Shown here: one piece after another, positions 6,622 to 31,197 of the stretch | Layout of the letters: the number at the start of each line of letters is the position of its first letter | Numbering within the stretch: position 1 is the first letter of the stretch | From: an uncultured Clostridia bacterium | GTDB taxonomy: Bacteria > Bacillota > Limnochordia > DTU080 > RSA5 | Reading direction: 5' to 3' | Assembly: GCA_964424335.1 (NCBI GenBank) | Contig: CAYRIY010000004.1 | Location: forward strand, 9,068 to 73,067 | DNA: 64,000 bases | Position numbers and translations under genes: made by a program | The notes under the pieces: generated by a model | Databases searched by the model: none | Seen by the model: the letters and a program-made list of their open reading frames with translations, nothing else | Told to the model about the DNA's origin: nothing

Positions 6622-6631
6622 GGGCGGCTAG

Positions 6632-9143: not shown

Positions 9144-9668
9144 ATGTCCGAATCGACCGAGCCTCGCCCCACGATCGGGGTCGTTCTTGGCAGCAAATCC
9201 GATCTTCCCGTCGTCGCCAAAGGCCTCGAGATCTTCGATGAGCTTCGCATCTCGTACGAAGTTCGCATTCTTTCCGCACACCGCACGCCCGACGAGGCGG
9301 TCGCGTACGCGAGGAGCGCAGCCGATCGCGGGTTGCACGCGATCGTTGCCGCTGCCGGCCGCGCCGCGCACCTGCCCGGCGTGCTGGCAAGCCACACTTT
9401 GGTGCCCGTGATCGGCGTGCCGATCGGCGGGGGGCCACTTGCCGGCGTCGACGCCTTGTACTCGATCGTGCAAATGCCAAGCGGCGTGCCGGTCGCTTCG
9501 ATGGGCATCGACGGCGCCGCCAATGCCGCGCTGTACGCGGCCCAAATCCTCGGTCTGCACGATGCGGCCGTACGGGAGCGCCTTGCGGCCTGGCGGCAGG
9601 GGCGGGCGGAAGTTTCGCTCAACGACGACGCCAAGGCGCGCGATCATGGCTGGCGTTCACTGCTTTAA
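9144..9668 (+). CDS. purE: N5-carboxyaminoimidazole ribonucleotide mutase / AIR carboxylase catalytic subunit
   Basis: PTIGVVLGSKSDLPV...VIGVPIGGGPLAGVDALYSIVQMPSGVPVASMGIDGAANAA matches PurE. It is preceded by the RBS AAAGGAGAA. Confidence 0.9.
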   Translation: MSESTEPRPTIGVVLGSKSDLPVVAKGLEIFDELRISYEVRILSAHRTPDEAVAYARSAADRGLHAIVAAAGRAAHLPGVLASHTLVPVIGVPIGGGPLAGVDALYSIVQMPSGVPVASMGIDGAANAALYAAQILGLHDAAVRERLAAWRQGRAEVSLNDDAKARDHGWRSLL

Positions 9669-9671
9669 AGG

Positions 9672-11045
9672 TCAATGCGCTCTACTTGCCAGCGCGCCCT
9701 TCGCTCGGGGCGCGCTGGGGAGTTGAAACCCGCCTACCGTAAAGCAATACCGCACGAGGCGGCGGCGCGCGTGTTTGCGAATGGCGGGCTCGTCGAAGAC
9801 CATGGGCTTTGCATTCAGCTCCAAGATCCACGGGTGGCCGCTTCGATCGAGCGCCACATCCATCGAGAGTTCCCCGTGCGTCCCGCCCGTCGCGGCATCG
9901 AAGGCCGCAGCCGCCGTGACGATCGCATTTTCTAGATTTCTGACGACTTGATCGACGCGGTCAGCGCCCTTTAGCACGCGGCGGAGGAGCGGGATGAGTT
10001 TGGCCCTCGATCCTCCCCGAGGACGGTGGGTTGTGATCTGCCGCGGTCCTGCGATGCGCGCGGCCATCCCCGTCACGGTCCACCCTTTGACCGGATCGTT
10101 TTGGACCAATGCTCGGATGTCAAAGGGACGCCCGTGGTAACGCAGGAGAGGGATGGCCTGTTGTATCAAGTAGCGCCTTCCGGCCTGAAATCGGTCCAAC
10201 TGGGCCGAGAATGCGCCGATGTCGTAGTACGTCGCGGCCCTGATCCGCCCTTTTCCCAAGGTCGATCGCCAGAGGATTCGGCCGTTTGGGTGCAGATCGA
10301 TGCGGGCCGTTCCATTGCCAAGGCTGCCGCCGGCCCGTTTCATGTACACTTCGTGGTGCTTGCGCAAAAACTCCATCAAAGACGTTGCATCCCGATACAT
10401 GAGCGTCTCGGGGAGGTGCGCCTTGACGGCTTCGTGGTCCTTGAGGATGTTGTGCACTTCCCACTTGTCGAGCAATTTCGGGTTGAAAAAGTGGACGTCC
10501 GACTCTTCAATAAACCGCTTGCGGGCTGCGTCGACGCTCGCCCGCCGCTCAGCGTTGCGGTTGGGCACTCGGTTGTAGATGACGTGGGGAAATGGGAAGC
10601 GGCCGCGAACCCAGGCGCCGCTGCGGCCGCTGATCGTATACCCCGCGATGGTCCGATCACTCCAATTCACGCCTTCCGGCGTAAATACGTACGCGATCGC
10701 TCCCATCTCCTTGGCGACGAGGATCAAACGGCGAAACTGCCCGGAGCTCGCCGCAAACCGGCGCTTAGGATTCTTGCGTGAGGACGATGTGAAGATTGCG
10801 ATGACGGGGCCAAGTGACAAGCCGTGCTCGCTCGTACGCACGGAGACTCGCCAGCGACCCGGTAGGTGTAGGCCTTTTCGCTGAGAACTCACCAAGGCCA
10901 CGCGGGCTCCCGATGTCTTGAGTTCGATGGGCGTCAGACCGATCGTCACGCTGCCGGCCCGCCTGACCGCTTGGATCGCGTCGGATGTGGATTTCAGCTT
11001 TAGCATCCGACCGGGGCCGTTTTTTATTTCAAATTGCATGGGCAA
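9672..11045 (-). CDS. YheC/YheD-family ATP-grasp protein (paralog 1) with a ~90-aa N-terminal extension
   Basis: Shows the family signatures LGPVIAIF, VHFFNP..DKW, YMKRAGGSLGNG, PFDIRALVQ, TGMAARIAG, SMDVALDRSGHPWILELNAKP. It is the last gene of the minus-strand block. Confidence 0.7.
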   Translation of the reverse strand: MPMQFEIKNGPGRMLKLKSTSDAIQAVRRAGSVTIGLTPIELKTSGARVALVSSQRKGLHLPGRWRVSVRTSEHGLSLGPVIAIFTSSSRKNPKRRFAASSGQFRRLILVAKEMGAIAYVFTPEGVNWSDRTIAGYTISGRSGAWVRGRFPFPHVIYNRVPNRNAERRASVDAARKRFIEESDVHFFNPKLLDKWEVHNILKDHEAVKAHLPETLMYRDATSLMEFLRKHHEVYMKRAGGSLGNGTARIDLHPNGRILWRSTLGKGRIRAATYYDIGAFSAQLDRFQAGRRYLIQQAIPLLRYHGRPFDIRALVQNDPVKGWTVTGMAARIAGPRQITTHRPRGGSRAKLIPLLRRVLKGADRVDQVVRNLENAIVTAAAAFDAATGGTHGELSMDVALDRSGHPWILELNAKPMVFDEPAIRKHARRRLVRYCFTVGGFQLPSAPRAKGALASRAH

Positions 11046-11078
11046 TTCCTCCCGAAAGGCGCGTGCGCTTTTTCGTGT

Positions 11079-12425
11079 TCAAAACCCGGCAATGTAGTTT
11101 GCATAGGCCATAGGCCGGTGGAATGAGCGCCACACTTGGCGCTTGGGGCCTGCGTCCGTAATCTTTCGGAACGGCTTGGCGTTCACTTCGATCAGCCAAA
11201 CTTGCCCTTTCCGATCGACGCCAAGGTCGAGGCCGACCTCGCCGAGCGGGCCGTCGAGCACTTCTTCAAGGGCGGTCACGATCTCGAGCGATGCGGTGCG
11301 GATCTTGGCCGCCACGCGCCGACCGTTCCTCTTGAATCGCTTGCGCAAGACGTAGGCAAGACCAAAGGCCGTTCCACCACGGCTCAGATTGGACGTGACC
11401 CTGCCTTGCGGAGCCACTCTGGCGTACGTCTTGGTCCGCGCCCACTCGCCATCGCCCGTCTTTTGCATGAGAATTCGCACGTCGAACGGGGCGCCGCCGA
11501 AGGTAGCAAGGTGAAGATCTTGCTGGACGATGTATCGCCGCCCGCGTTGAATGCGAGTAATTCCTTTGTATAGTGCATCAAACCGAGTCGTCCCATGGAT
11601 TCTGCGACCGTGCCGCCACTCGTATCCCGTGTGCGTCCGTCGCACCCGCACGACGCCTTTGCCTTGGCTGCCTTCGGTAGGCTTTACGTAGACGGAGCTG
11701 TGTTGGTCGAGAAACGCCTGCAGACTGGCGGGCCCGGTCAGTTGCCGCGTCTCGGGGATGTACCGAACCAGGCGTTCGTGCCGGGACATGCGCTGATAGA
11801 TCGACCACTTGTCAAAAAATCCTTCATTGAAATAATGGACGTCGGGGATGGCCTGCAAAACTGCTTTCGCACGTTGCGTGCTGGCACGCCGCTCCCAACT
11901 GCGCGCTTGCACGCGATCGTACACCACGTCGGGGAGGGGAAGGCGCCTTTTGACCCAACGCTTTCCGGAGCGAACGTACCCCTCCACGTAATCGGCGCCT
12001 TCCTCGATTCCGTCCGGGGCCGCGACGAACGCCACCATGCCCAAAGCCCTGCCATGGGCGATCAGGTGTTTGAGGTCCCCAGTGCGGACACCAAAGAGCG
12101 CCCGCCTTCCGCTGCGCCTCTTTTTGGCTGCAAAGATCGCGACGATCGGGCCGAGGCAGAGCGCCTGGCGCTCTGGCTCCCATCGAATGCGGAGCGTTTG
12201 CGGGAGCGAGAGGTAAAGGTCACTTGCGACCTTGGGACTGATGGCGACGACGTCAGAGCCTCGTTTGTTCGAAACAGGCACGGAGACGCTCTTAGCCCCA
12301 ACTTTTAGCGTCGCTTGATCAAGGCGCGGGGCGCCAAGCGACTCGAGAAGCGCCTCTGAAACGGCGATCCCGTCGACCCCCTCTTGGGCCCGCGTCAACT
12401 TGACCTTTGCGCTCTTGTATGGCAT
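11079..12425 (-). CDS. YheC/YheD-family ATP-grasp protein (paralog 2) with a related N-terminal extension
   Basis: LGPIVAIFAA, VHYFNEGFFDKW, VYVKPTEGSQGKG, PFDVRILMQ, GLDLGVDRKGQVWLIEVNAKP. The N-terminal ~95 aa parallel those of paralog 1. Confidence 0.7.
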   Translation of the reverse strand: MPYKSAKVKLTRAQEGVDGIAVSEALLESLGAPRLDQATLKVGAKSVSVPVSNKRGSDVVAISPKVASDLYLSLPQTLRIRWEPERQALCLGPIVAIFAAKKRRSGRRALFGVRTGDLKHLIAHGRALGMVAFVAAPDGIEEGADYVEGYVRSGKRWVKRRLPLPDVVYDRVQARSWERRASTQRAKAVLQAIPDVHYFNEGFFDKWSIYQRMSRHERLVRYIPETRQLTGPASLQAFLDQHSSVYVKPTEGSQGKGVVRVRRTHTGYEWRHGRRIHGTTRFDALYKGITRIQRGRRYIVQQDLHLATFGGAPFDVRILMQKTGDGEWARTKTYARVAPQGRVTSNLSRGGTAFGLAYVLRKRFKRNGRRVAAKIRTASLEIVTALEEVLDGPLGEVGLDLGVDRKGQVWLIEVNAKPFRKITDAGPKRQVWRSFHRPMAYANYIAGF

Positions 12426-12505
12426 CGACTTCTTCCCTTTCTCGGAGCTGCTCTTTAGGCCGTAGGGCCCGGGAAAGGCCCGCCGATCGGCGTGGCCGCC
12501 CCACG

Positions 12506-13897
12506 TCAGCGCCGCTTACGCTTTTGGGGTCGTCGGCGGACCAATCCCCACCGCAACTTTAGGTCGCGGTTTTCGCTCCATTCTTTACCCTCACGCACCC
12601 ATTCAGGAATGACTTGCAGATGCTCTTCCATCCTCGAATAGTCCGGTAGGGTCTCAAGGTCGGACCAGATTGCCTCAAAGGCAGGGCGCATGACCTCTTT
12701 GTCGGATCGGTAAAATGCGCGGCAAATCTCGTTATGCGCAAACATATCGAGACGCAGGCGCTCGTAGTTCTCCGCGACCAGCTTTGCCAGGCATGCGATG
12801 GCGTGGGCGAAGTCGGGCGCTACGATCCAACTCGACGGGACTCGGTACTCAAAGCCGTGGCGCTGCCAGCGAAACTCGCCGAGGTATCCGTAGCGGGGGC
12901 GCCGCCGACGGGCGCGCTTTGGATCCTCGAGCATCGCCACGGGGAGCGCGAGGTAGTTGTCGAGCGCCCGGAGCAATTCCGTCGTGAGCGGCACGTCGCT
13001 GAAGTGGATGTGGCCGCCGATCGGGTAGCTGCGCACGGGGAGGCTTCCCGCCTGCCAACTCGAATCTTTGGGCGCGCGGCGAGCGGCCCTGCGGAGCAGA
13101 TCCTTGATGTTTGAAACGAGCACGACCGGGTCGGACGAAGGCGAAGGGCGCACCTCGACGATGGGCTTTGCCCCCCGGCGATATCGACTGCCCTGCTGGT
13201 CGTAACCGACCCGGCCGTGCCTGCTGAAATATCGAGACGCGTAAACGATCCCTTTGCCTCGGCGCATGATGAACTCGATGTCGGCGCCGAGCGTGACGGG
13301 CTTGCGGGCAAAGTCGAATCGGGAGCGCCGACGAGCGACGAAATGGGAGGCGGAGCGGGCATACAACCTGCCCGTCGTCGGTGTGAGCTCCGGGGTGGGA
13401 TCGACCCGCGTCGGCGCCGCTTCGTCCTTGCTGAGCGAGATGACGTCCACCGAGCCGAAATGCAGCCCGAGGGCGTAAATGCAGCGGACGGCCATCGCCC
13501 GGACCGCCCGCATTCGCTTTGAACCACCGTGTATCCGCTTGAGCTTCTTTCCGCTTCGCCGGTAAAGGCCAAGGACTCGCAAGTCGCATACGTGCACTCT
13601 GTAGCGGCCCTTTCGTCCATAGTACCGGGTGCGGATCCCGTGTGCGCGCAGGCGCTCAACGACTCTTTCTTTGTCTTGAGCGGCGCGGAGCGCTTCGGGC
13701 GGGTTGAGGACCCACTCGGCGCCGATGGGATCGAAATCCGTGGCGCCCCAGGACATGACGGCATCCCACGGTCCGGGTAGGTACTCGGAGTCAAACGTGA
13801 TTTTCCCTTCATTATCGTTGGGAAACTTCAGCCGCTTCGGTTTTCCTTTGGGCGGATGAATGGCAAGGAGGTTCACCGCGTCCGGGCCTCCTTCCAA
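12506..13897 (-). CDS. Uncharacterised ~460-aa protein (paralog A): degenerate ATP-grasp-like N-terminal half plus a C-terminal domain with GADIEF / GYDQQ / GGHIHFS motifs
   Basis: Shares YxLGLHFGSVDV, GAD[IP]EF, IVYASRY, GYD.Q, SNI..ALRRAA, GGHIHFS, LRALD.YL, RRR.RYG, FEYRV.SW with the ORF at 15382..16770. The N-terminal YRVHVCDLRVLGL...MAVRCIYALGLHFGSVDV resembles the ATP-grasp central and C-terminal sheets. No confident family assignment is possible from sequence alone. Confidence 0.6.
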   Translation of the reverse strand: MEGGPDAVNLLAIHPPKGKPKRLKFPNDNEGKITFDSEYLPGPWDAVMSWGATDFDPIGAEWVLNPPEALRAAQDKERVVERLRAHGIRTRYYGRKGRYRVHVCDLRVLGLYRRSGKKLKRIHGGSKRMRAVRAMAVRCIYALGLHFGSVDVISLSKDEAAPTRVDPTPELTPTTGRLYARSASHFVARRRSRFDFARKPVTLGADIEFIMRRGKGIVYASRYFSRHGRVGYDQQGSRYRRGAKPIVEVRPSPSSDPVVLVSNIKDLLRRAARRAPKDSSWQAGSLPVRSYPIGGHIHFSDVPLTTELLRALDNYLALPVAMLEDPKRARRRRPRYGYLGEFRWQRHGFEYRVPSSWIVAPDFAHAIACLAKLVAENYERLRLDMFAHNEICRAFYRSDKEVMRPAFEAIWSDLETLPDYSRMEEHLQVIPEWVREGKEWSENRDLKLRWGLVRRRPQKRKRR

Positions 13898-13969
13898 ACG
13901 ATCCGCCAGGTCGAGTCCAAACGAGGAGTTACGTCACATAAACGAGGGTAGCGGTCATCACAACACGGT

Positions 13970-14170
13970 CTAGCAGCGCATCGTGAGTATGAGTACAAAG
14001 ATGAGTCCCCCGAGGAGCACGACGTCGAACGGATTGGGAACGATCAGCACCTTGAGGAGTTCGATGCAGATCATTGCGACAATGACGACGAACGTCACGT
14101 CGAGGTTTCGCATTTTGCGCGACATGGATCGTTTCACCCTCACCGTGCAGGCTCGCTCGCCTGCTTTCAA
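13970..14170 (-). CDS. Possible small two-TM membrane protein (66 aa)
   Basis: Lies in the gap between two block genes on the same strand. It has hydrophobic segments VTFVVIVAMICIELLKVLIV and VVLLGGLIFVLILTM, and local GC content is lower. The coding evidence is weak. Confidence 0.3.
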   Translation of the reverse strand: MKAGERACTVRVKRSMSRKMRNLDVTFVVIVAMICIELLKVLIVPNPFDVVLLGGLIFVLILTMRC

Positions 14171-14268
14171 AGGAGTCGTGGCGTCAGTTCTTTCCCGCTA
14201 TCCTACGAGCCTCGGCGGAGGCTGGGAATAGTACTGAGTTCCCTAGTTCCCAGGTGGTAAGCGCATCC

Positions 14269-15363
14269 CTAGGAGTCTGTTGATTTCTTGCTCAAGTACC
14301 AAGCGTATTGAACGACACGGATGCGCGACGTCCGCCACGATTTCGTCAGGCGCGCTCTGGAGAAGAGCGCCCGTCCGGGTTGCCGGTTGACCTCGATGAT
14401 CCACAGTTTTCCTGTGCGGTCGAGGCCAAGATCGAGGCCGAGTTCGCCAAGGGTTGGGTGGGCGCTGGACATTTGGGCGGCGCATTTCAGCGCAAGGGCC
14501 CGAACCATTGCAGCGAGCGTCTTTGCTTTCGGGGCGCGGGGAAGACCGCGCACGAGGCGCTGCAGCGTCATTGCGGTTCCCCCTGCGTGCAGGTTGGAGA
14601 CAAACCCTCCGGGACGCCCGACACGCGCGCCGATCGCCGAGACGCGCCAGCGGCCTTCAATGTCACGTTGGACGATCGCACGTATGTCGACGGCAGACCG
14701 CCCTCGACGCATCAGGTCGAGGTCCTGCTGTACCAAGTATTCGTCAGGCGGTTGCCCGTCGACGGCAAATGCGACGAGCTGCGCTGCGTCTTTTAGGGAT
14801 CGCTTGACGGCAGCGCCTGATTCGGATCGTCTCGCCGCTTTCCAACCCGACTCGGATCGCACCGCCTTGACGATCCCCTTGCCCTGGCGGCCGCGCACCG
14901 GCTTGATGTAAAGCGCTCGGTGGGACTCGGCGATCCGCTCGATGGCATCGGCGCTCAGGGGTAAGGTTTCGGGGAGGTGAAGGGCGAGCTTGGGATCTTG
15001 AGCAAGGAGCGCATGGACCTCGAGTTTGTCCCCGAAGTCCGGGTTGAACACGGCAACCCCATATTCGCTCTCCAGGCGCCCAAGCGCGAGCCTGCACTTT
15101 TCGGCCTTCTCTTTGCCTAGGCCCCAAAGACGGTCGTGGACCACGTGAGGAAATCCTCGTTGAACGACTTTCCATCCCCCGTTCGTCGGGACGTACGCTT
15201 TGACGCGCCTGCGTTCCCAGTCGATGTCGAGGGGGGAGAAGACGTACCCTTCCATGTGGTGCCGTCTGGCGATCCGGATGAGTCCTCGCAGGTACGAGGT
15301 TTGCTCTCCAAACAGCCGCTTGTGAAACCGGCGCGCTGCAATTGCAAACACGGTGCGGGCCAT
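14269..15363 (-). CDS. YheC/YheD-family ATP-grasp protein (paralog 3, no N-terminal extension)
   Basis: VAVFNPDFGDKLEVH, LYIKPVRGRQGKG, AVDIRAIVQ, NLHAGGTA, ELGLDLGLDRTGKLWIIEVNRQP. Confidence 0.7.
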   Translation of the reverse strand: MARTVFAIAARRFHKRLFGEQTSYLRGLIRIARRHHMEGYVFSPLDIDWERRRVKAYVPTNGGWKVVQRGFPHVVHDRLWGLGKEKAEKCRLALGRLESEYGVAVFNPDFGDKLEVHALLAQDPKLALHLPETLPLSADAIERIAESHRALYIKPVRGRQGKGIVKAVRSESGWKAARRSESGAAVKRSLKDAAQLVAFAVDGQPPDEYLVQQDLDLMRRGRSAVDIRAIVQRDIEGRWRVSAIGARVGRPGGFVSNLHAGGTAMTLQRLVRGLPRAPKAKTLAAMVRALALKCAAQMSSAHPTLGELGLDLGLDRTGKLWIIEVNRQPGRALFSRARLTKSWRTSRIRVVQYAWYLSKKSTDS

Positions 15364-15381
15364 GGCAACCGCCTCCCTTAG

Positions 15382-16770
15382 TCAGATCTCCCAAGCCGCC
15401 TTGATGTCCCGATCCTCGTGCCACTCCTCGCCGGCCTCGATCATTTTGGTGAAGTAGGATAGCTCCGCTCGGTATTTGCGCCCTGTTTCGGTCCGAAGCA
15501 CGTTGTGGATCAGGCGCGGGTAAAGTGTGCGGAATCGCCCTTTTTTGGATAGATAAAACTCCTTGCTCGCCTGCGTCGAGGAGAGGTAGTTCCGATTCAA
15601 CCGCGGCCACTCGGCGGCCACCGTCTTGGCTAGGGCAAGCGTCGCCGTCGTGGCTTCAGGCGAGACGAGCCAGCTTGGCAGCACCCGGTACTCAAACCCG
15701 CCGTGTTCCTTGCGGCGAAAGTCGCCCGCACGGCCATACCGGCGCCTGCGTCTTTTGGCCCGGTGTCTTTGCTCGAGCAGCATGATCACAACGCCCAAAT
15801 AGCTGTCGAGGGCCCGCAGAAACGGGGTGGTCAGCGGCGCTCCACTGAAATGGATGTGGCCGCCGGTCGGGTACTTTCCCATGGGGTAGCTGCCGGCGAG
15901 CCACGAAACGCCCTTTGTCGGCAGGAGCTCCGCCGCTCGCCGCAATGCCGTCTCGATGTTTGCGACAAGCGTGAATGGGGAAGGGCTCGGATTTGGCCGC
16001 AGCTCCGCCAAGGGAAAGACCGACCCCCGGTTCGCGCGGCTTTGTCGGTCGTATCCCACGAGTCCGGAATGGGTCACATACCGGGACGCGTATACGATTT
16101 TCCCGCCCGCTTTGACCAGCGCAAACTCGGGATCGGCGCCAAGCGCCGCCTCGCTGGAAGGCTCCGGGGGCTCAACCCAGGATTCGGCCATGTCGGCAAT
16201 GCTCGCGCCATAAGCCCGGGCGAGGTCATCGTCCGCTGAAGGTTGAGCGTCGACTCGACCGACGTACCAGCGTCCGGATGGATGCACCATGACGTCGACC
16301 GACCCAAAGTGCAGTCCGAGGACGTATACGGCACGGCATGCCCCCTCGGCAATTCTTTGGTACTTCCAGCGCGAAATCGAGCGCATGGCTCCGCGGGCGT
16401 CATCGACCGCCAGGATGCGCAGGTCGGCCACGTGGACGCGCACAAGGGCGTACTCATCCCTCAATGGCGGCATGACCGGGCGCACAGCGTCGCGGGGCAG
16501 GCGCTCGGGATCCACGGGGATGCCATGCAGGTGAAGGAGGAGGGAGGTCTTCTCTGGTGAGTCGGCGATCCTTACCGCATTGACCGGATTGATCACGACG
16601 GCTGCCTTGGCAAGGGATGCGCTTTTTCCCCAACAAATGACCACGTCCGACTCGTTCGAAGACGCGCGGGCGCGCCGCTCGACGGTAAATCCCCGCTTGT
16701 CGAGCGCGTCGGCTACGGCCAAGACCGCGCTCGAGCGAACTTCTTTCGGGGCTAACAGTATCGCCTTCAT
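15382..16770 (-). CDS. Uncharacterised ~460-aa protein (paralog B of the 12506..13897 family)
   Basis: The N-terminus (VINPVNAVRIADSPEKTSLLLHLHGIPV; LVRVHVADLRILAV; AVYVLGLHFGSVDV) looks like an ATP-grasp N-terminal/central part. The C-terminal domain carries GADPEF, IVYASRY, GYDRQ, GGHIHFS, RRRRRYG, FEYRVLPSW. Confidence 0.6.
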   Translation of the reverse strand: MKAILLAPKEVRSSAVLAVADALDKRGFTVERRARASSNESDVVICWGKSASLAKAAVVINPVNAVRIADSPEKTSLLLHLHGIPVDPERLPRDAVRPVMPPLRDEYALVRVHVADLRILAVDDARGAMRSISRWKYQRIAEGACRAVYVLGLHFGSVDVMVHPSGRWYVGRVDAQPSADDDLARAYGASIADMAESWVEPPEPSSEAALGADPEFALVKAGGKIVYASRYVTHSGLVGYDRQSRANRGSVFPLAELRPNPSPSPFTLVANIETALRRAAELLPTKGVSWLAGSYPMGKYPTGGHIHFSGAPLTTPFLRALDSYLGVVIMLLEQRHRAKRRRRRYGRAGDFRRKEHGGFEYRVLPSWLVSPEATTATLALAKTVAAEWPRLNRNYLSSTQASKEFYLSKKGRFRTLYPRLIHNVLRTETGRKYRAELSYFTKMIEAGEEWHEDRDIKAAWEI

Positions 16771-16811
16771 AAGGACAAATCGCCATCCTGTAGTAGATCT
16801 TGCAAGATCGA

Positions 16812-18682: not shown

Positions 18683-18724
18683 AGCCGCTCGAGTCCCCCT
18701 TCATCGAAACGCCGACGATGAGAT

Positions 18725-19888: not shown

Positions 19889-19909
19889 TCGATTGTTATC
19901 TACAGTGCT

Positions 19910-21247: not shown

Positions 21248-21276
21248 TTGACGCATACCGGACAACGTGCTAACAT
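21248..21276 (+). promoter_or_regulatory. Candidate sigma-A-type promoter for purB and downstream genes (TTGACG, 17-nt spacer, TAACAT)
   Basis: The motif sits ~95 nt upstream of purB in the divergent intergenic region shared with the minus-strand block. It is flanked by two inverted ACGAACATT(A/C)AAC PurBox-like motifs at 21229-21240 and 21298-21310. Confidence 0.3.
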
Positions 21277-21368
21277 TGGGCCGTATCGCCACGAAAACAC
21301 GAACATTCAACCGGGACCTTACGTCCCTCGTCACGTGAGCGAGCTGGGCCCGGTGAGGAGGTAGACCT

Positions 21369-22763: not shown

Positions 22764-22823
22764 GCCTCTTACATGGCGCGAAGTTCAGGCGCCCACAGCG
22801 AACAACAAAGGAGCGCTGCCAGC

Positions 22824-23075
22824 ATGACGTATCGAGCGAAAGTTTACGTGACGTTGAAAGAAGGCGTGCTCGACCCGCAGGGAAACGCGGTTCGACAAGG
22901 ATTGAACTCGTTGGGTCACTCGGTGCAGGACGTTCGGGTCGGACGGTTTATCGTGCTCACCCTAGAGGCCGAGGATGAAGCGTCGGCCAAGGCCCAGGTC
23001 GAGGAGATGTGCCGCCGCCTCCTGGCAAACCCTGTAATCGAAGATTACACGTTCGATACGCCCGAGGAGGTGTAG
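22824..23075 (+). CDS. purS: FGAM synthase PurS subunit
   Basis: The ATG at 22824 is preceded by AAAGGAG. MTYRAKVYVTLKEGVLDPQG...VGRFIVLTLEA matches PurS. Confidence 0.85.
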   Translation: MTYRAKVYVTLKEGVLDPQGNAVRQGLNSLGHSVQDVRVGRFIVLTLEAEDEASAKAQVEEMCRRLLANPVIEDYTFDTPEEV

Positions 23076-23081
23076 CGCGCC

Positions 23082-23798
23082 TTGCGATTTGCGGTTTTGG
23101 TTTTCCCCGGTTCAAATTGCGATTCGGACTGTTTCAACACGCTCAAAGAGTTTGAGGGCGCCGAAGTCGAGTACGTGTGGCATCAGGAGACCGACATCGA
23201 CCGCTTTGACGCCGTAATTTTGCCCGGTGGATTTTCGTACGGCGACTATTTGAGACCGGGGGCGATTGCGCGCTTCTCACCGGTCATGGGCGCCGTAGCG
23301 AAGTACGCCGATCGGGGCGGGCTGGTCCTTGGAATTTGCAATGGCTTTCAGATTTTGTGCGAAGCCGGGCTGCTTCCTGGGGCGTTGGTTCGCAATGCGT
23401 CGCGCCGGTTTCACTGCGAGATGCGCCCGATACGGGTCGAGCGAAACGACACGCCGTTTACCAATGCTTGTGCGGATGGCGAAACGCTCCTCATGCCCAT
23501 CGCTCACGCGGAAGGGCGGTACTACGCAGACCCGGAGACGCTTGCTCGCTTGGAGGCCAATCGGCAAGTCATCTTTCGCTACGTCGACGAAAACGGGGAG
23601 GCGACGCCTGCCGGAAATCCGAACGGGTCGCTCGCAAACATCGCCGGCATTTCGAGCGAGCGCGGCAATGTGGTCGGACTGATGCCTCATCCCGAACGAA
23701 ACGCGGACACGATTTTAGGCGACGGGAGCGGCCGCAAAGTCCTCTTGTCGCTCGCAAGGGCGGTTTCTGGAGTTGAGAGGGGGCAGTTTGTCCGATGA
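23082..23798 (+). CDS. purQ: FGAM synthase glutaminase subunit
   Basis: [14 protein letters not shown]...GGFSYGDY...GICNGFQ...HPER is a class-I GATase. Confidence 0.9.
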
Positions 23799-26059
23799 GC
23801 TACCCGGACGGCGCTTGGAGAGAGATGGGCCTCAAGGACAGCGAGTTTGAGCTCATTATTGAGGCGCTCGGCAGGCGGCCCAACTGGACTGAGCTCGGCA
23901 TGTACGCCGTGCTTTGGTCCGAACACTGCGCGTACAAACACTCGCGGCCGCTCTTTCACCTTTTCCCGACGGAAGGGGAACAAATTCTTCAAGGCGTCGG
24001 CGAGAACGCCGGCGTCGTAGACATCGGAGACGGCCTTGCCGTCACGTTCAAGGTGGAGTCCCACAACCACCCGTCGGCCATCGAGCCGTACCAAGGGGCT
24101 GCGACCGGCGTCGGCGGCATTTTGCGCGACATTTTCACGATGGGCGCTCGGCCCATCGCGGTCCTCAATTCGCTCAGGTTTGGACCTCTAGACAGCGATA
24201 GGGTGCGTTATCTCTTTGAGGGCGTCGTCTCCGGCATCGCCGGCTACGGCAACGCGGTGGGTGTGCCGACGGTCGGCGGAGAGATCGCATTCGACGATGC
24301 GTACGCCGGCAACCCCCTCGTCAATGCGATGGCCGTCGGGCTCGTCCCTCACAAACACGTGCAGACGGCCGCGGCAAAAGGCGTAGGCAACCCTGTGATG
24401 GTCGTGGGCGCACGGACCGGTCGGGACGGCATCCACGGCGCGAGCTTCGCCTCGGCGGAACTCACCGAGGAGTCCGAGTCCAAGCGGCCCTCCGTCCAGG
24501 TGGGAGATCCCTTCACGGAAAAGCTCTTGATCGAGGCGTGCATGGAGTTAATCGAGTCCGGCGTCGTCGTCGGCATTCAGGACATGGGCGCCGCCGGCCT
24601 TACGAGCTCGTCGGCGGAGATGGCGGCGCGGGCCGGTTCAGGCATCGAGATGGACATCTTGAAAGTGCCAAGGCGCGAGCCCGGCATGAGCGCGTACGAG
24701 ATCATGCTCTCCGAGTCGCAAGAGCGCATGCTGGTCGTTCCCAAGAAAGGCGCCGAGGACGAGGTAAAGCGGATCTTCGCGAAATGGGGCCTCGAGGCGG
24801 TCGTGGTCGGAAGAGTGACCGATGACGGGATGCTGAGGATCAAAGAGGGCGATCAAGTGGTCGCGGAGGTCCCGGCAAAGTCCTTGTCGACGGATGGCGC
24901 TCCGAGCTATCGCCCGGAGGAAAGGCGACCCGCCTACATCGATGAACTGGTCAACGCTCCCATTCCCGACGACATTGAAGGAGACGCGGGTCAGATCCTC
25001 AAGACGCTGCTCTCCGATCCGAACATCGCAAACAAAGCGTGGGTTTACCGACAGTTCGACCACATGGTGCAGACCCGCACTGCGGTGCCGCCCGGCGTCG
25101 CAGACGCAGCGGTGCTGCGGCTGCGAGAGAGCGGGAAAGGGCTCGCCATGAGCATCGACTGCAACGCGCTCCACTGCTATGTCGATCCCAAGACGGGCGC
25201 AGCGGCGGCGGTCGCCGAAGCGGCGCGAAATCTCGTGTGCACCGGCGCTCGGCCTCTTGCTTTGACCGATGGGATGAACTTCGGCAATCCGGAAAAGCCC
25301 GAAGTGTACTGGCAGCTTCATCGATCCGTCGAAGGGATTGCGATGGCGGCGCGCGCGCTCGGCACGCCGGTGACGGGCGGCAACGTGAGCCTTTACAACG
25401 AGTCGGAAGGGAGCGCGATTCCTCCGACGCCCATCATCGGTATGGTCGGCTTGCTCGAACGGGTCGAGGCGCGCCTTACGCAAGGGTTCAAAGAGCCGGG
25501 AGACATCGTTTACCTGCTTGGCGAACACTGCGGCGAGCTTGGCGGCAGCCGCTATTTGAAAGCGCTCCACGACGTCATCAAAGGTCCTCTCCCGCCGCTT
25601 GACCTCGAGCTCGAGCGGCGCGTCCAAGAGGCCTGTCTTGCGGCGGCCGGCAAGGGGTATTTGAAGTCCGCTCACGACTGCTCCGAAGGCGGGCTTGCCG
25701 TGGCGCTTGCGGAGTCTTGCCTCACGGGACGATTGGGCGTGCGCGTGCAGTGGGAGCCGGCGGCGGGTCTTCGTTTGGATGCTCAGCTCTTTGGGGAAGG
25801 GTATAGCCGCATCGTGGTCACGGTAGCGCCTTCCGACGTCGAGGCGTTCGAGTCCCTTTTGGCGGACGCAGGCGTTCCCTGGAGCCGCATCGGTGTCGTC
25901 ACCGCCCTCGAGGACGGTTACGCGCTTGAGGTTGGCGGTGTGCACATCAAGGAAGGTCTGGCCGACCTTGCAGACTGTTGGTACGGCAGCCTACCCCGGG
26001 CGATGGATGGCGCCGAGGCCGCGAGCGGCTTTGTGCCTCCGGCGCTTGCAAGAGCGTAG
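23795..26059 (+). CDS. purL: FGAM synthase large subunit
   Basis: 754 aa with a PurM-like duplicated fold ([21 protein letters not shown]). Confidence 0.9.
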
Positions 26060-26126
26060 TGTAGACCGGCGCCTCTTTCACGTTTGATGAGGAGGCGCGC
26101 TTTTCGTTGCAAAGGGAGGGCCTACC

Positions 26127-27557
26127 ATGTGCGGCATATTTGGGATGTTTAGTCGTGGCCCGGTCGACGCGGCCGGATTGACGTACCTTGGACTTTACGC
26201 CCTGCAGCACCGAGGCCAGGAGAGCGCCGGCATCGTGGTCTCCGACACGCAGCGCATGCGGCTCCACAAGGCGATGGGGCTCGTTCCCAACGTCTTTGAC
26301 GACGCCGCTTTGGAATCAATGCCGGGCCGGATCAGCATCGGTCACGTCCGCTATTCGACGACCGGCGCCCCGCACATCGCGAACGCGCAGCCGCTCCTTG
26401 CTTTTTCGCGCCACGGGCAATTGGCGCTCGCCCACAACGGCAACCTGACGAATACCAACCTGCTCCGACATGAGCTTCTCGCGTCGGGATCGGCCTTTCA
26501 GACGACGACGGACAGCGAGGTAATCATCAATCTCATCGCGGCCGGAAACCACGACGAACCGCTCGAAGATGCCGTGCTCCGGACGGTGCGGCGGATCTCC
26601 GGAGGGTTTGCCATCGTGTTGATGACGAACGACGCGCTGATCGGCATCCGTGATCCCCTTGGCATCCGGCCGCTTTCGATCGGACGCATGGGGGACGATT
26701 GGTTTTTCTCCTCCGAGTCGTGCGCCTTCGACATCGTCGGCGCAGATCTCGTACGAGACGTGCGGCCCGGCGAGATGGCGATCATCGACGAGCATGGATT
26801 GCGGTCTGTTCAGTTTGCTCCCGCGAGCAAAGACGCGTTTTGCATTTTCGAATTCATCTACTTTGCGAGGCCCGACAGCGTGATCGACGGAAAGAGCGTC
26901 CATGAGGTGCGCAAGGAGATCGGCCGACGCCTTGCAGACCAGCGCCGGATCGACGCTGATCTCGTCGTGCCCGCGCCCGACTCCGCCATGTCGGCGGCCC
27001 TCGGTTACGCGGAGCGATCGGGCATTCCATTTGACATTGGACTTGCGAAAAACCGGTATGTGGGGCGCACATTCATTCAACCGACGCCGTCGATGCGTCG
27101 GACAGGCGTGCGCATCAAGCTTAATCCGATTTCCGAAACGGTGCGGGGTAAGCGCGTCATCCTCGTCGATGACTCGATCGTGCGAGGAACGACGAGCCAA
27201 AAGACGATCCAGCTCCTGCGCGAGGCCGGCGCCGCCAAGGTTCACATGGCCGTCGCGTCGCCTCCGTTTTCCCATCCGTGCCTTTATGGAATCGACGTGC
27301 CCACCGGCGACGAACTGATCGCATACCACCGTTCCGTCGATGAGGTCTGTCGACTGATCGGCGCGGACTCGCTCGATTACCTCAATTTCAATTCGCTGTA
27401 CGAAGCGGTCGGCATTTCGGGCGATCGACTGTGCACGGCATGTTTTGGCGGCGGATATCCGACTGAGATCGAACCTGAGCATTTTGACGTCCCGGATCTC
27501 CTCGAGGACAAGAGAGGACGCGCCGTATCGGCGCCCATGGACGGAAGTAACCGGTAG
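26127..27557 (+). CDS. purF: Amidophosphoribosyltransferase
   Basis: N-terminal MCGIFG (Ntn Cys) and a PRTase domain (VILVDDSIVRGTT). Confidence 0.9.
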   Translation: MCGIFGMFSRGPVDAAGLTYLGLYALQHRGQESAGIVVSDTQRMRLHKAMGLVPNVFDDAALESMPGRISIGHVRYSTTGAPHIANAQPLLAFSRHGQLALAHNGNLTNTNLLRHELLASGSAFQTTTDSEVIINLIAAGNHDEPLEDAVLRTVRRISGGFAIVLMTNDALIGIRDPLGIRPLSIGRMGDDWFFSSESCAFDIVGADLVRDVRPGEMAIIDEHGLRSVQFAPASKDAFCIFEFIYFARPDSVIDGKSVHEVRKEIGRRLADQRRIDADLVVPAPDSAMSAALGYAERSGIPFDIGLAKNRYVGRTFIQPTPSMRRTGVRIKLNPISETVRGKRVILVDDSIVRGTTSQKTIQLLREAGAAKVHMAVASPPFSHPCLYGIDVPTGDELIAYHRSVDEVCRLIGADSLDYLNFNSLYEAVGISGDRLCTACFGGGYPTEIEPEHFDVPDLLEDKRGRAVSAPMDGSNR

Positions 27558-27594
27558 ATGTTCAACGACTATTTGCAAAGGAATCGGTGCGCAT

Positions 27595-28629
27595 ATGAAC
27601 GACCAGACCAGCTATAAGGCTTCAGGCGTCGACATCGAGGCCGGATACGAAGCGGTCCGCCGTATCCAAGAGCACACGAAATCTACGTTTCGCCCCGAAG
27701 TGCTGCGGGGCATCGGGTCATTTGGCAGCTTTTTCGCGCTCGATACGGCTAAGTACAAAGAGCCCGTGCTCGTCTCCGGCGCGGACGGCGTCGGAACGAA
27801 GTTGAAGATCGCATTCATGATGGACAAGCACGACACCATCGGCATCGACGCAGTCGCCTACTGCGTGAACGACATCGTCTGCCAAGGTGCCGAACCCCTC
27901 TTCTTCCTGGATTACCTCGCACTCGGGAAGCTGGACCCCATGATGGTCGAAGCGATCGTATCCGGTGTGGCAAAGGGGTGCCGCGAAGCCGGCTGCTCTT
28001 TGGTAGGAGGTGAGACGGCGGAAATGCCGGGCTTTTACGCGACTGGCGAGTACGACTTGGCGGGCTTTGCCGTGGGCGTGGTCGAGCGCGACGCCGTGAT
28101 CGACGGCAGCCGCGTGCGCGCAGGCGACGTCGTGGTAGGCATCGCCTCGACCGGACTGCAAAGCAGCGGCTTCTCGCTCGTGCGCCACATCTGCTTCGAG
28201 CGGGCACGGCTCAGCGTTGAGACGCATGTCGAGGCGCTCGGGCGGACGCTCGGCGAAGAGCTCTTGGAGCCGACGGGAATTTATGTGCCCGCAATTTTGA
28301 GCCTCATTTCCAAGTTTGACGTGAAAGGCATTGCCAACATTTCCGGCGGCGGATTGCCGGAAAACCTGCCCCGATCGGTCGGACAAGGGCTCGAGATCGT
28401 CGTGCGAAAAGGTTCGTGGGAGACGCCTCCGGTCTTTCCCTGGCTCCAATCGCTCGGCAACGTCGACGAAGCGGAGATGTTCAAGACGTTCAACATGGGC
28501 GTCGGCATGGCTGTCATCGTCTCACAAGGAGACGTGGATGCGGTCATTGCACAGCTTGCTTCGCTGGGCTGGCGATCATGGCCGATCGGTGAGATTCGGG
28601 CGGGCGAGGGAGGCGTCGTGTTCTCGTGA
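27595..28629 (+). CDS. purM: AIR synthetase
   Basis: Start at MNDQTSYKASGVDIEAGYEAV. Also DAVAYCVNDIVCQGAEPLFFLDY. Confidence 0.9.
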   Translation: MNDQTSYKASGVDIEAGYEAVRRIQEHTKSTFRPEVLRGIGSFGSFFALDTAKYKEPVLVSGADGVGTKLKIAFMMDKHDTIGIDAVAYCVNDIVCQGAEPLFFLDYLALGKLDPMMVEAIVSGVAKGCREAGCSLVGGETAEMPGFYATGEYDLAGFAVGVVERDAVIDGSRVRAGDVVVGIASTGLQSSGFSLVRHICFERARLSVETHVEALGRTLGEELLEPTGIYVPAILSLISKFDVKGIANISGGGLPENLPRSVGQGLEIVVRKGSWETPPVFPWLQSLGNVDEAEMFKTFNMGVGMAVIVSQGDVDAVIAQLASLGWRSWPIGEIRAGEGGVVFS

Positions 28630-29285
28630 GCGCTTCAGAGGAGGTCATTCGCCTCGGGCGAAAAGCGGACGCAAGCGATCCGCTCAAAGTCGGCGTCCTC
28701 GTCTCGGGCAGAGGGTCCAACATGGAAGCGATCATCGACAGCGCAAAGTTGGGCGAAATCCCGGTTTCCGTCGAAATCGTCCTCTCCGATCGGGAGGATG
28801 CGCCCGCGCTCGAGAAAGCGGCAAGGCGAGGCATCCCGGCGCGAGGGTTTCGCTGCCCGCCGCCGGGACCGGAGCGCGATGCGTTCTACGATCGAGTGCT
28901 CGAGGCGCTGCGCTCGCACGGAGTCGAAATGATCGCGCTTGCAGGGTACATGCGCATCTTACCCGCCGCCGTCCTCGAGGCATACCCTCATCGGATCCTC
29001 AACATCCACCCCTCGTTGCTCCCGTCATTTCCGGGCTTGCATCCGCATCGCCAAGCGCTCGAGCACGGCGTCAAGGTATCGGGTTGCACCGTGCACTTAG
29101 TCGACGGCGGGGTCGATACGGGGCCCATCATTTTGCAAGAGAGCGTGCCGGTGCTCGAGACCGACGACGAAGAGAGCTTGGCCGCGCGGATTCTTGCCGT
29201 TGAGCACAGGCTTTACCCCAAGGCGCTCGGCCGCTTGGCGTCGGGACGGCTGGCATTGTCCGGGCGCCGGGTGATCGAAGCGTAA
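28626..29285 (+). CDS. purN: GAR formyltransferase
   Basis: VGVLVSGRGSNMEAII...NIHPSLLP...VSGCTVHLVD formyltransferase motifs. Confidence 0.85.
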   Translation: MSASEEVIRLGRKADASDPLKVGVLVSGRGSNMEAIIDSAKLGEIPVSVEIVLSDREDAPALEKAARRGIPARGFRCPPPGPERDAFYDRVLEALRSHGVEMIALAGYMRILPAAVLEAYPHRILNIHPSLLPSFPGLHPHRQALEHGVKVSGCTVHLVDGGVDTGPIILQESVPVLETDDEESLAARILAVEHRLYPKALGRLASGRLALSGRRVIEA

Positions 29286-29315
29286 CTCTGTTACTTTGGA
29301 GGCAGGCGTTTCATC

Positions 29316-29915
29316 TTGATCAAGCGAGCAATCTTGAGCGTGTTCGACAAGACGGGCATCACCGAGTTTGCGAAGGCGCTCGCCCGACACGGCGTCGAGA
29401 TCATCTCGACCGGCGGAACGTATCGCACCCTCGAAGAGGCGGGCGTCCCCGTTACATACATCAGCGACGTAACAGGCTTTCCCGAGATTCTGGGCGGCCG
29501 CGTGAAGACGCTCCATCCAAGAATTCACGGGGGCATTCTCGCGCGCAGGCAGATTCCTTCGGACCAAAGCGACCTCGAAAAGATCGGAGCGCAAGGGATC
29601 GATCTCGTCGCCGTAAACCTTTATCCGTTCGAAGAGACGATAAGAAAACCCGGGGTGAGCGTGTCCGAGGTCCTGGAGAATATCGACATCGGGGGCCCGA
29701 CGATGGTGCGGGCTGCCGCCAAAAACTATCCGGATGTAGTCGTCGTGGTTCGGCCTGATCGTTACCCGGAAATTGTCGAGCGACTCGACCAAGGCAATCC
29801 GATCGATTTGGCGACTCGAGAGGTGCTCGCCAAAGAGGCGTTTGCCCATACGGCCGCGTACGACGCGGCGATCGCCCGGTGGTTTTCAAGGCGCGGGGAA
29901 GGAGAGGCGACTTGA
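29316..29915 (+). CDS. purH: IMP cyclohydrolase domain of PurH only (MGS-like, ~199 aa); the AICAR formyltransferase domain is absent
   Basis: [15 protein letters not shown]...[20 protein letters not shown]...[10 protein letters not shown] aligns with PurH residues ~1-200. The stop at 29913-15 is followed two nt later by the purD start. Confidence 0.75.
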
Positions 29916-29916
29916 C

Positions 29917-31197
29917 GTGAAGGTCCTTGTAGTAGGAAGTGGAGGGCGTGAGCACGCCCTTGCCTGGAAGCTCGCGCAAAGCCCAACCGTCGCCAAAGTG
30001 ATCTGCCAAAGCGGCAATCCGGGCATGCGCTCCGTGGCCGAGTGTCTTCCTGAGCCGGAGGGCGGGATCGAAGAGATCGCAGCGTGGGCAGCGCAGGAGC
30101 GCGTCGACCTTGCGGTCGTGGGCCCGGAAGCATACCTGGACCTCGGCCTCGTGGACGCCTTCGAACGTCGGGGCGTAAAGGCCGTGGGACCCACGAGGAG
30201 CGCGGCCATGCTGGAAAGCAGCAAGAGCTTTGCCAAGGAATTGATGGCCAAAGCACAGATTCCGACCGCGCAGTTTGTTGTGTGCGACGCGCCCGAAGCG
30301 GCCCGCAAGGCGGCGCGGCGTTTCGGCGCTCCGGTCGTCGTGAAAGCCGAGGGACTTGCCGCAGGCAAGGGCGTCACCGTCGCGTTCACCCTCGAGGAGG
30401 CCGATCGAGCGATCAGCCAAGCGATGGAGGAGCGCATTTTCGGGGACGCGGGGCGGCGCGTCGTCATCGAAGAGTTTTTGCGCGGCGAAGAGGCGAGTGT
30501 CCTCGCGTTCGTCGACGGCGAGCGCGTGATGCCGATGCCCGCCGCTCAGGACCACAAGGCCATCGGGGAGGGGGACACGGGTCCCAACACCGGGGGCATG
30601 GGCGCTTATTCGCCTGCGCCGATCATCACGCCCGACCTCGAAGCGCGCGTGGTGCGTGAGATTTTGGAACCTGTCGTGCAGGCGATGGCCAGCGAGGGCC
30701 GCCCTTATCGCGGCGTGCTTTACGCAGGCCTCATGGTCACGAACGATGGCCCAAAGGTGGTCGAGTTCAACTGCCGGTTCGGAGACCCGGAGGCCCAGGC
30801 CGTTTTGCCGCGCCTAAGGTCCGATCTGGTGGAGCCGCTCATGGCCACTGTCGAAGGGCGGCTTGACGAAGTGACGCTGGAATGGGACGAGCGGGCCTGC
30901 GTCTGTGTCGTGCTCGCCTCCGGAGGGTACCCGTCCCGCTACGAAACAGGGTTTCCCATCGAAGGCCTCGCTGAAGCCGAAGCGATCGAGGACGTCATGG
31001 TGTTTCACGCAGGCACGCGCGCCGAGGGCGATGCGATCCTCACCGACGGCGGGCGCGTGCTCGGCGTGACGGCGCTCGGCGAGACGCTCGCCCAGGCGAC
31101 CGAAACGGCCTACTTGGCGGCTGACAAGATTCGTTTCCAAGACAAGTACTTGCGGCGAGACATCGCATGGCGAGCCCTGGAACGGTTAAACCAATAA
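29917..31197 (+). CDS. purD: GAR synthetase (ATP-grasp)
   Basis: The GTG at 29917 is preceded by GAAGGAGAG. VKVLVVGSGGREHALAWKL is the classic PurD N-terminus. Confidence 0.9.
   Translation: MKVLVVGSGGREHALAWKLAQSPTVAKVICQSGNPGMRSVAECLPEPEGGIEEIAAWAAQERVDLAVVGPEAYLDLGLVDAFERRGVKAVGPTRSAAMLESSKSFAKELMAKAQIPTAQFVVCDAPEAARKAARRFGAPVVVKAEGLAAGKGVTVAFTLEEADRAISQAMEERIFGDAGRRVVIEEFLRGEEASVLAFVDGERVMPMPAAQDHKAIGEGDTGPNTGGMGAYSPAPIITPDLEARVVREILEPVVQAMASEGRPYRGVLYAGLMVTNDGPKVVEFNCRFGDPEAQAVLPRLRSDLVEPLMATVEGRLDEVTLEWDERACVCVVLASGGYPSRYETGFPIEGLAEAEAIEDVMVFHAGTRAEGDAILTDGGRVLGVTALGETLAQATETAYLAADKIRFQDKYLRRDIAWRALERLNQ

Follow-up and report, generated by a model that had tools for sequence, protein, structure and literature searches.

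Locus organization

The 64,000-nucleotide (nt) stretch of contig CAYRIY010000004.1 analysed here (the window), from an uncultured Clostridia bacterium, carries purine-synthesis (pur) genes on both sides of a block of ATP-grasp and related ligase genes. Families were assigned by Pfam and NCBIfam hidden Markov model (HMM) scans of every long open reading frame (ORF) in the window, and the locus was compared with the contexts of relatives, located via PurB and blk1 homologues and labelled L0xx or L1xx. The HMM scans returned the gene order and coordinates given in a preliminary description of this DNA, with purE at 9144-9668, purB from 21369 and the block between them. That description read the arrangement as a purine operon split by the block; we consider it likely that three independent units instead stand side by side, in an order typical of the lineage, in a spore-forming Bacillota bacterium of the Limnochordia type, and that purC and the transformylase gene were relocated later. 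The units are arranged as follows.

342-9668, plus strand: rluD, pyrR, pyrB, pyrC, pyrF, carA, pyrK, pyrD, pyrE, purE
9672-21223, minus strand: the block, nine ORFs in 11.55 kb, between purE and purB
After the block, ending at 31197, plus strand: purB, purS, purQ, purL, purF, purM, purN, a 199-amino-acid (aa) gene, purD

Nine opposite-strand genes thus separate purE, which lies 109 nt 3' of pyrE, from purB, 11.7 kb away. The block consists of five YheC/D ATP-grasp genes, two COOH-NH2 ligases of type 2, one RimK-like gene and one family 4 glycosyltransferase (GT4). The guanine-plus-cytosine (GC) content of the window is ~62%, and composition is unbroken across the region. As described earlier, the gap between the stops of the convergent purE and blk1 is 3 nt, and purK and purC occur nowhere in the window: tblastn with the E. 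coli proteins gave zero matches at E<=0.01, and neither family was found in the HMM scans. Two further features had gone unmentioned, namely the reduction of purH to its cyclohydrolase domain and the absence of carB between carA and pyrK.

With an 85-kb contig assembled from a metagenome as the source, an assembly or binning artefact would be one way to account for the gaps. We find this barely credible. The purE/blk1 junction was identical in three independent Logan contigs of the same organism, the purB-purS junction was also found in L031 and L018, which are independent assemblies of related organisms, and L018 shares the purN-purH2-purD junction too. The 199-aa cyclohydrolase gene, moreover, has members of its 90% cluster in Logan, ENA and JGI assemblies. 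These junctions do not stem from misassembly. An apparent plus-strand gene after purE in Logan contig L002 was discarded as a mis-call over the 3' end of blk1.

Position of the block among relatives

The closest PurB among species-representative genomes came from a Limnochordia metagenome-assembled genome (MAG) and was 73% identical. Among the Bacillota relatives found through PurB similarity, four lacked the block, and in all four (L017, L008, L012 and L007) purE was followed directly by purB, with no purK between them. L017 carries carA-carB-purE and then purB-purC-purS-purQ-purL-purF-purM-purN-purH-purD; L008 and L012 carry pyrR-permease-purE followed by purB-purC and the remaining genes, and L007 has purD-purE-purB-purC and the rest. 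Set against these genomes, the block is indeed interposed between purE and purB, as had been noted. The further claim that it fills the slot of purK does not hold, because block-free relatives have purE directly before purB and there is no purK slot to occupy.

The spacer between the two genes in the block-free relatives is itself informative. A sigma-70-type promoter and a structured leader were found in the 175-200-nt purE-purB spacer of L017 and L008 and in the equivalent spacer upstream of purB in L012. The leaders belong to the ykkC family (RF00442, 65-67 bits, just over the gathering score) and, from their gene context as described in PMC5912903, are probably of the subtype that binds phosphoribosyl pyrophosphate (PRPP). 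The ykkC-family leaders upstream of purB in block-free relatives are listed below.

L008, 9821-9922
L012, 9821-9920
L017, 9829-9926
L004, 3743-3858

The block-free relatives thus show, for this part of the Bacillota, a pyr-type unit closed by purE and, after it, a separately regulated operon that starts with purB under a promoter and leader of its own; the block lies in the gap between the two. The purine operon is therefore not split, contrary to the preliminary description; the block sits at an operon boundary. Like the window, L017, L008 and L012 have rluD and pyrR upstream, a purE that ends the pyr-type unit, an independent purB operon after it and no purK, while they differ from the window in having no amidoligase block, in retaining purC and a full-length purH, and in carrying a riboswitch-like leader instead of PurBox-like boxes.

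L012 also has a second, partial pur set (purE-purS-purQ-purL-purF, 4410-9707) just 5' of its full purB-to-purD operon (9908-21140), and a similar ykkC-like leader precedes each purS or purB.

All nine genes recurred, with order and place unchanged, in six further lineages or contexts examined, with the following arrangements.

L023/L018: pyrE-purE, block, purB-S-Q-L-F-N-H2-D
L024/L031: pyrE-purE, block, purB-S-Q-L and onwards
L026/L030: pyrE (without purE), block, purB-C-S-Q-L-F-M-N-H(full length)-D
L113: block, purB-L-F-M-N-H(full length)-D
L115: block, purB-C-S-Q-L-F-M-N-H-D
L028: pyrE, block

Across these lineages the block keeps its position down to 65-69% PurB identity and over a GC range of 61-70%. 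A smaller block, YheCD-YheCD-CotE-COOH-NH2 ligase, occupied the same place in L032, a Limnochordales MAG with 65% PurB identity, in which the order is pyrE, an AIRS-like gene, the small block with CotE, and purB-purC with the remaining genes. In Tumebacillus (L029) the arrangement cotE-YheCD-YheCD-COOH-NH2 ligase-YheCD-YheCD was found at an unrelated locus, away from pur genes.

The additional gene after pyrE in L032 (4078-5070, 330 aa, PF00586/PF02769) is related to AIR (5-aminoimidazole ribonucleotide) synthase, possibly as thiL or a paralogue of purM, and is present besides the purM of the operon.

That the block separates purE from purB relative to block-free Bacillota is what one would expect had a mobile island recently entered a purE-purK-purB-purC operon and deleted purK and purC. 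Nearly everything else makes such an event extremely unlikely. No integrase or transposase, adjacent tRNA gene, flanking repeats or composition shift was found around the block, and the sole tRNA gene of the window (46776-46850) is ~25 kb away. There is no purK at that spot in block-free relatives, purC still stands beside the block in L030 and L115, and the block occurs in all six related lineages examined, down to the 65-69% PurB identity and across the GC range given above. We accordingly rejected a mobile genomic island, and the insertion that had been thought recent enough to date is not borne out. Because it is present at the same position across distant lineages and signs of mobile elements are absent, the block is an old resident of this position rather than a recent arrival.

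The pyr operon and purE

The genes upstream of the block form a pyr operon with a probable PyrR-binding leader. The leader scored below the gathering threshold in the window, while the same element (RF00515) exceeded the threshold in L008, L012 and L017.

1403-1554, plus strand: probable PyrR-binding leader 5' of pyrR (RF00515, 47 bits against a gathering score of 54, E 3e-4)
1580-9034, plus strand: pyr operon, pyrR-pyrB-pyrC-pyrF-carA-pyrK-pyrD-pyrE (NCBIfam matches)
8450-9034, plus strand: pyrE
9144 (ATG)-9668 (stop), plus strand: purE (PF00731, 8e-58; TIGR01162, 184 bits)

A promoter scan of the 109-nt pyrE-purE spacer found no promoter- or terminator-like site, and in L023 the spacer measures only 30 nt; for these two reasons purE probably closes the pyr transcription unit and is co-transcribed with the pyr genes.

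PurE from the window scored 116-158 bits against the class I structures 1QCZ, 1D7A, 1O4V, 1U11 and 1XMP, but 45-56 bits against the class II structures 3RG8, 2H31 and 4JA0 (Treponema denticola and animal enzymes). The segments SAHRTP and AAGRAAHLPG, which we take to be the motifs that tell class I from class II, are invariant between this protein and E. coli PurE. By scores and motifs alike PurE is class I, of the N5-CAIR (N5-carboxyaminoimidazole ribonucleotide) mutase type, and we rejected a class II variant (AIR carboxylase).

Class I PurE without purK is documented from high-CO2 habitats, where N5-CAIR arises non-enzymatically or PurE uses AIR and CO2 (PMC3261824). The window resembles the methanogens and high-CO2 organisms described there in combining a class I enzyme with the absence of an adjacent purK.

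The pyr side of the locus has a gap of its own. No carB was found between carA (5452-6621) and pyrK (6632-7465), nor anywhere in the window by tblastn with E. coli CarB. It is likewise not adjacent to carA in any of the four block-bearing lineages in which the pyr side was seen (L023, L024, L026 and L028), while block-free L017 has carA and carB side by side. The gene is presumably encoded elsewhere in the genome.

The purB operon and its control

On the far side of the block the pur genes form a plus-strand operon preceded by a promoter, found by promoter scan, and by two boxes with a CGAAC core, found by motif scan.

21232-21244 (minus strand) and 21295-21307 (plus strand): inverted pair of PurBox-like boxes flanking the purB promoter
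21248-21276, plus strand: purB promoter, TTGACG, 17-nt spacer, TAACAT
21369 (GTG)-22763, plus strand: purB, adenylosuccinate lyase (TIGR00928, 1e-86, 291 bits, under the equivalog cut-off of 326)
22773-23075, plus strand: purS ORF (NF004630, 3e-32, match from residue 20)
23082-23798, plus strand: purQ (NF002957, 321 bits)
23795-26059, plus strand: purL (NF002290, 1017 bits)
26127-27557, plus strand: purF (TIGR01134, over the cut-off)
27445-28629, plus strand: purM ORF, true start probably near 27600 (TIGR00878, over the cut-off)
28626-29285, plus strand: purN (TIGR00639, over the cut-off)
29316-29915, plus strand: stand-alone inosine monophosphate (IMP) cyclohydrolase, PurH2, 199 aa, between purN and purD
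29917-31197, plus strand: purD, glycinamide ribonucleotide (GAR) synthetase (TIGR00877, 556 bits; GTG start, tblastn alignment from 29917)

Judging from the position of its match, the true start of purS probably lies ~60 nt past 22773. Orthologues of purB were 65-85% identical, and the score below the equivalog cut-off suggests that PurB of the window belongs to a somewhat atypical subgroup of adenylosuccinate lyases. Proteins encoded in MAGs of Armatimonadota and Patescibacteria are among its nearest relatives, with identities of 53-60%.

Both boxes fit AWWWCCGAACWWT, the presumed PurBox consensus, at 11 of 13 positions, and are named on that basis. The layout of promoter and boxes is kept in L018, L031, L030, L113 and L115, making six block-bearing genomes with the window, and no purine or ykkC riboswitch was found upstream of purE or purB in the window even at E<=1. 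PurR-type repression through these putative operators is plausible, and control of the pur operon was apparently swapped between related lineages, from a ykkC-type leader to PurBox-like operators.

The shared genes stand in the same order as in the B. subtilis operon purEKBCSQLFMNHD (purB, purS-Q-L-F-M-N, part of purH, and purD), and the sigma-A-type promoter with CGAAC-core PurBox-like boxes is a further likeness. Unlike in B. subtilis, purE ends the pyr operon, neither purK nor purC is present, only the cyclohydrolase domain remains of purH, one box lies 3' of the -10 element, and a guanine riboswitch or attenuator leader was not found.

Absence of purC and reduction of purH

Two enzymatic functions are missing from within the purB operon itself. 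No purC occurs between purB, which ends at 22763, and the purS ORF, which starts at 22773, and the position of purH is taken by the 199-aa gene. The latter covers positions 4-196 of the 510 of the PurH model, with PF02142 and only the first 60 positions of PF01808, and its product is 56% identical to residues 7-194 of E. coli PurH (tblastn) and 62% identical to the N-terminal part of L030 PurH. The ORF ends in the inter-domain linker, its TGA being 1 nt before the GTG of purD; in L018 the purH2 stop overlaps the purD start. The L018 orthologue shows 62% identity, with a nonsynonymous divergence (pN) of 0.28 against a synonymous divergence (pS) of 0.69. The domain for AICAR (5-aminoimidazole-4-carboxamide ribonucleotide) transformylase was absent from the window by HMM scans and tblastn. 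From its sequence, the 199-aa gene appears to be a complete MGS-like cyclohydrolase domain encoded as its own ORF and conserved between lineages.

A search of protein representatives for the cyclohydrolase domain returned lengths of 200-600 aa, mixed with gene fragments from short contigs. The best representatives of this domain, proteins P0300-P0302, each had two matched stretches over 279-400 aa, which suggests tandem duplicated cyclohydrolase domains in some metagenomic proteins.

As an isolated N-terminal PurH domain with a gene of its own, PurH2 resembles its archaeal counterparts, for example that of the Archaeoglobi, which is paired with PurP (PMC3261824). It differs from them in being bacterial, in occupying the normal purN-purH-purD slot and in deriving from a bacterial full-length purH.

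It is specifically the sub-clade formed by the window, L024/L031 and L018/L023 that lacks both purC and the AICAR-transformylase half of purH. In L030 and L115 both genes still stand beside the same block, so their absence post-dates the block; these two genomes also give no support to a link between the block and the missing purC.

Other genes have also left the operon in related lineages. In L113 (10001-13860) purB is followed directly by purL, with purC, purS and purQ not there; in L032 (10001-14698) purC is followed by purL, with purS and purQ not there; and in L018 (GCA_041686855.1, 14534-16800) purF is followed directly by purN, purM being gone from the operon. PurL needs PurS and PurQ and CarA needs CarB, yet these partners are missing locally, which points to relocation of pathway genes as a common event here.

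The retained pur genes were as constrained as the pyr genes, with pN of 0.09-0.29 and pS of 0.6-0.78, at which synonymous sites are saturated. The approximate pN/pS-type ratio was 0.15-0.18 for purE and 0.18 for the stand-alone cyclohydrolase. These values indicate that the retained pur genes are under purifying selection. Such constraint argues for a working pathway and therefore for purC and a transformylase gene elsewhere in the genome, where they are most likely encoded. Among the options of the preliminary description was a coincidence of rearrangement with purK and purC relocated; this option is supported, the relocation being a step that we infer.

The gaps could alternatively be true losses, in a sub-clade that is giving up de novo purine synthesis (for example when cross-fed in a digester or compost) and in which the remaining pur genes are leftovers or serve other needs. 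It would fit such erosion that the gaps vary by lineage, the window lacking purC and the transformylase domain and L018 lacking purM as well, that a digester Limnochordia MAG has been reported with many amino-acid auxotrophies (PMC9347119), and that no purC of this clade was recovered in two PurC searches. The state of the genes that remain makes us think it unlikely. They are all intact and, despite the saturated synonymous sites, conserved like the pyr genes; purE and the stand-alone cyclohydrolase are constrained although they would be useless in a broken pathway; and the excisions are clean at gene or domain boundaries, with the translational coupling of purH2 and purD kept and no pseudogenes.

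The amidoligase block

The block genes, all on the minus strand, and the small ORF among them were assigned as follows.

9672-11045, minus strand: blk1, YheC/D-type ATP-grasp (PF14398, 6e-66)
11079-12425, minus strand: blk2, YheC/D-type ATP-grasp (PF14398, 4e-78)
12506-13897, minus strand: blk3, COOH-NH2 ligase type 2 (PF14395, 2e-90)
13970-14125, minus strand: small hydrophobic ORF of 51 aa, between blk4 and blk3, sequence MSRKMRNLDVTFVVIVAMICIELLKVLIVPNPFDVVLLGGLIFVLILTMRC
14269-15363, minus strand: blk4, YheC/D-type ATP-grasp (PF14398, 3e-66)
15382-16770, minus strand: blk5, COOH-NH2 ligase type 2 (PF14395, 2e-85)
16812-17786, minus strand: blk6, RimK-family ATP-grasp ligase (PF08443, 4e-26; TIGR00768, 150.8 bits, above the cut-off of 143.4)
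17687-18682, minus strand: blk7, family 4 glycosyltransferase (PF13439, 4e-20)
18725-19888, minus strand: blk8, YheC/D-type ATP-grasp (PF14398, 8e-37)
19910-21031, minus strand: blk9, YheC/D-type ATP-grasp (PF14398, 1e-64)

The PF14398 scores of blk1, blk2, blk4, blk8 and blk9 were 127-263 bits, against a gathering cut-off of 26.8. Orthologues of blk1 occupy the same position in relatives at 44-78% identity; blk8 is the most divergent gene of the block (38-49% identity to orthologues). Translation of blk9 likely starts at the TTG at 21031 rather than at the ORF start at 21223, because orthologue alignments begin at ORF residue 62-64 and a ribosome-binding site, AAGGGGAG, precedes the TTG. The 51-aa ORF has called orthologues in L023 and L024, and small ORFs stand at the same position in four other block-bearing loci, L026, L031 and L113 among them; it gave no Pfam match in the window, and a weak PF27064 (YszA) tag was assigned to its L023 counterpart.

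In B. subtilis the spore coat contains the ATP-grasp proteins YheC and YheD (PMC7725329; bioRxiv 10.1101/2022.02.25.481979), and operons that combine ATP-grasp and COOH-NH2 ligase genes are known to make peptide-like products (PMC4431377). Since cotE is linked to homologous clusters in relatives (L032, Tumebacillus), the block is best read, from its families and this linkage, as a YheC/YheD-type spore-coat amidoligase cluster, which would carry out sporulation-linked peptide ligation and glycosylation. With B. subtilis YheC/YheD and the cotE-linked clusters of L029 and L032 it shares PF14398 and PF14395, paralogous ligases in one operon and a spore-forming host; compared with the cotE-linked clusters it is expanded to nine genes, with the RimK-like gene, the GT4 gene and the 51-aa membrane ORF, and cotE is not within it. 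The window itself contains spo0A (45458-46294), with further sporulation and cell-division genes downstream of the pur operon.

Matches to the purine enzymes were sought among the block proteins as well. None matched the PurK (TIGR01161, NF004679 and relatives), PurC or PurP models, the best score being 19 bits for blk6 with PurK, against a cut-off of 327. This score is trivial and tblastn with E. coli PurK was empty, and we rejected the block proteins as candidates for PurK.

These scores bear on a further explanation, non-orthologous replacement, in which SAICAR (N-succinocarboxamide-5-aminoimidazole ribonucleotide) synthetase and AICAR formylation, and perhaps formation of N5-CAIR, would be supplied by unrelated ATP-dependent ligases, either encoded in the block or PurP-like and encoded elsewhere. 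The chemistry would suit it: the steps left without an enzyme call for ATP-dependent ligation of a carboxylate to an amine or of formate, the ATP-grasp enzymes include both PurK and PurP, the Archaeoglobi pair a stand-alone PurH2 with PurP (PMC3261824), and in all genomes of the clade the block is next to the pur operon. Yet L030 and L115 have the identical nine-gene block together with canonical purC and full-length purH, the purC-less genomes carry no additional block paralogue, the block proteins match none of the three models, and the smaller blocks of L032 and Tumebacillus include or adjoin cotE. We regard replacement as very unlikely. It is equally hard to believe that the clade (the window, L024 and L018) has lost canonical SAICAR synthetase and folate-dependent AICAR transformylase and yet keeps a working pathway; conceivably, by analogy, a PurP-like formate-dependent enzyme would then be paired with the cyclohydrolase, and an unrecognized ligase of CAIR (carboxyaminoimidazole ribonucleotide) and aspartate, possibly from the amidoligase cluster, would take the place of PurC.

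Several minor elements lie in or near the block. A conserved GCGTA-N3-T(A/T)(A/G) box is present 5' of blk9 (~21075-21150, read on the minus strand) and also in the equivalent regions of L018, L031, L030, L113 and L115, with a CTCCTAT-like box ~17-20 nt before it; by eye, the GCGTA box resembles the -10 element of mother-cell sigma factors (sigma-K/E-type, CATA-N3-TA). At the other end, inside the 3' end of blk1, an inverted repeat was found.

9681-9726: imperfect hairpin, arms of 19 nt, loop of 8 nt (inverted repeat I15)

This hairpin begins 13 nt past the purE stop, in the last codons of blk1, has no T-run, and may be a shared terminator for the convergent purE and blk1. Farther downstream, spo0A and the single tRNA gene lie within a conserved housekeeping stretch, priA-def-fmt-rsmB ... 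rlmN-FHA-PP2C-ftsW-PBP-PknB-rsgA-rpe.

Discussion

Taken together, the gene identities, the synteny, the class of PurE, the conserved promoter and boxes, and the constraint seen in the pur genes still present are directly observed, and they are accommodated by a juxtaposition of three units. The first would be a pyr operon with a PyrR leader and class I purE as its final gene. The second would be the convergent nine-gene ligase/glycosyltransferase cluster with its small membrane ORF, most likely serving peptide ligation at the mother-cell spore coat or envelope. The third would be purB-purS-purQ-purL-purF-purM-purN-purH2-purD, divergent from the block and transcribed from its own sigma-A-type promoter bracketed by PurBox-like boxes.

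In an early Limnochordales ancestor the block would have entered the pre-existing gap between the pyr/purE and purB units. It would not have displaced purK; no relative has that gene at this locus. Within the sub-clade to which the window, L024/L031 and L018/L023 belong, a later step would have cleanly taken purC and the AICAR-transformylase half of purH out of the operon, the functions of purC, the transformylase and carB presumably being encoded elsewhere in the genome. N5-CAIR could come from an unlinked PurK or form non-enzymatically at high CO2. The spore-coat role of the block, the PurBox-like regulation and the whereabouts of the missing genes are the parts of this scheme that we infer.

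Some points weigh against it. Of the source genome the analysis covered the window, and purC, AICAR transformylase, purK and carB were not located. A search with L017 PurC did not recover a purC of this clade among the 120 matches listed of at least 8000, and in a metagenome scan with L030 PurC only the L030 lineage (L033) was close, the other matches being at most 61% identical; of the latter, the 28 loci with GC >57% were annotated, and their pur genes are unrelated to the window clade. L018, with purM also missing at the locus, has three gaps in one lineage, which fits erosion as well as relocation. The spore-coat role leans on family membership and on cotE linkage in relatives, and the PurBox assignment on resemblance to the presumed consensus; a purR gene was not seen in the window. 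Stand-alone PurH domains, finally, are described as mainly archaeal (PMC3261824), so that a separate bacterial transformylase gene is an assumption.

An ATP-grasp block that replaced purK would have hinted at a new N5-CAIR enzyme, an idea that the comparative evidence removes. These loci also show that expectations drawn from the gene order of B. subtilis, which was the wrong standard of comparison here, transfer poorly to distant Bacillota. Every component is of a known family, and their arrangement is a lineage-specific variant of the bacterial pur locus; the conserved Limnochordia synteny of pyr operon, coat-type amidoligase cluster and pur operon is a possible lineage marker. Overall the gene order is ordinary and inherited, and it leaves a modest question. 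The sole feature that might be unexpected to a specialist is the bacterial stand-alone IMP cyclohydrolase in an operon without purC, and its persistence under selection raises the question of how AICAR formylation and SAICAR synthesis proceed in these organisms.

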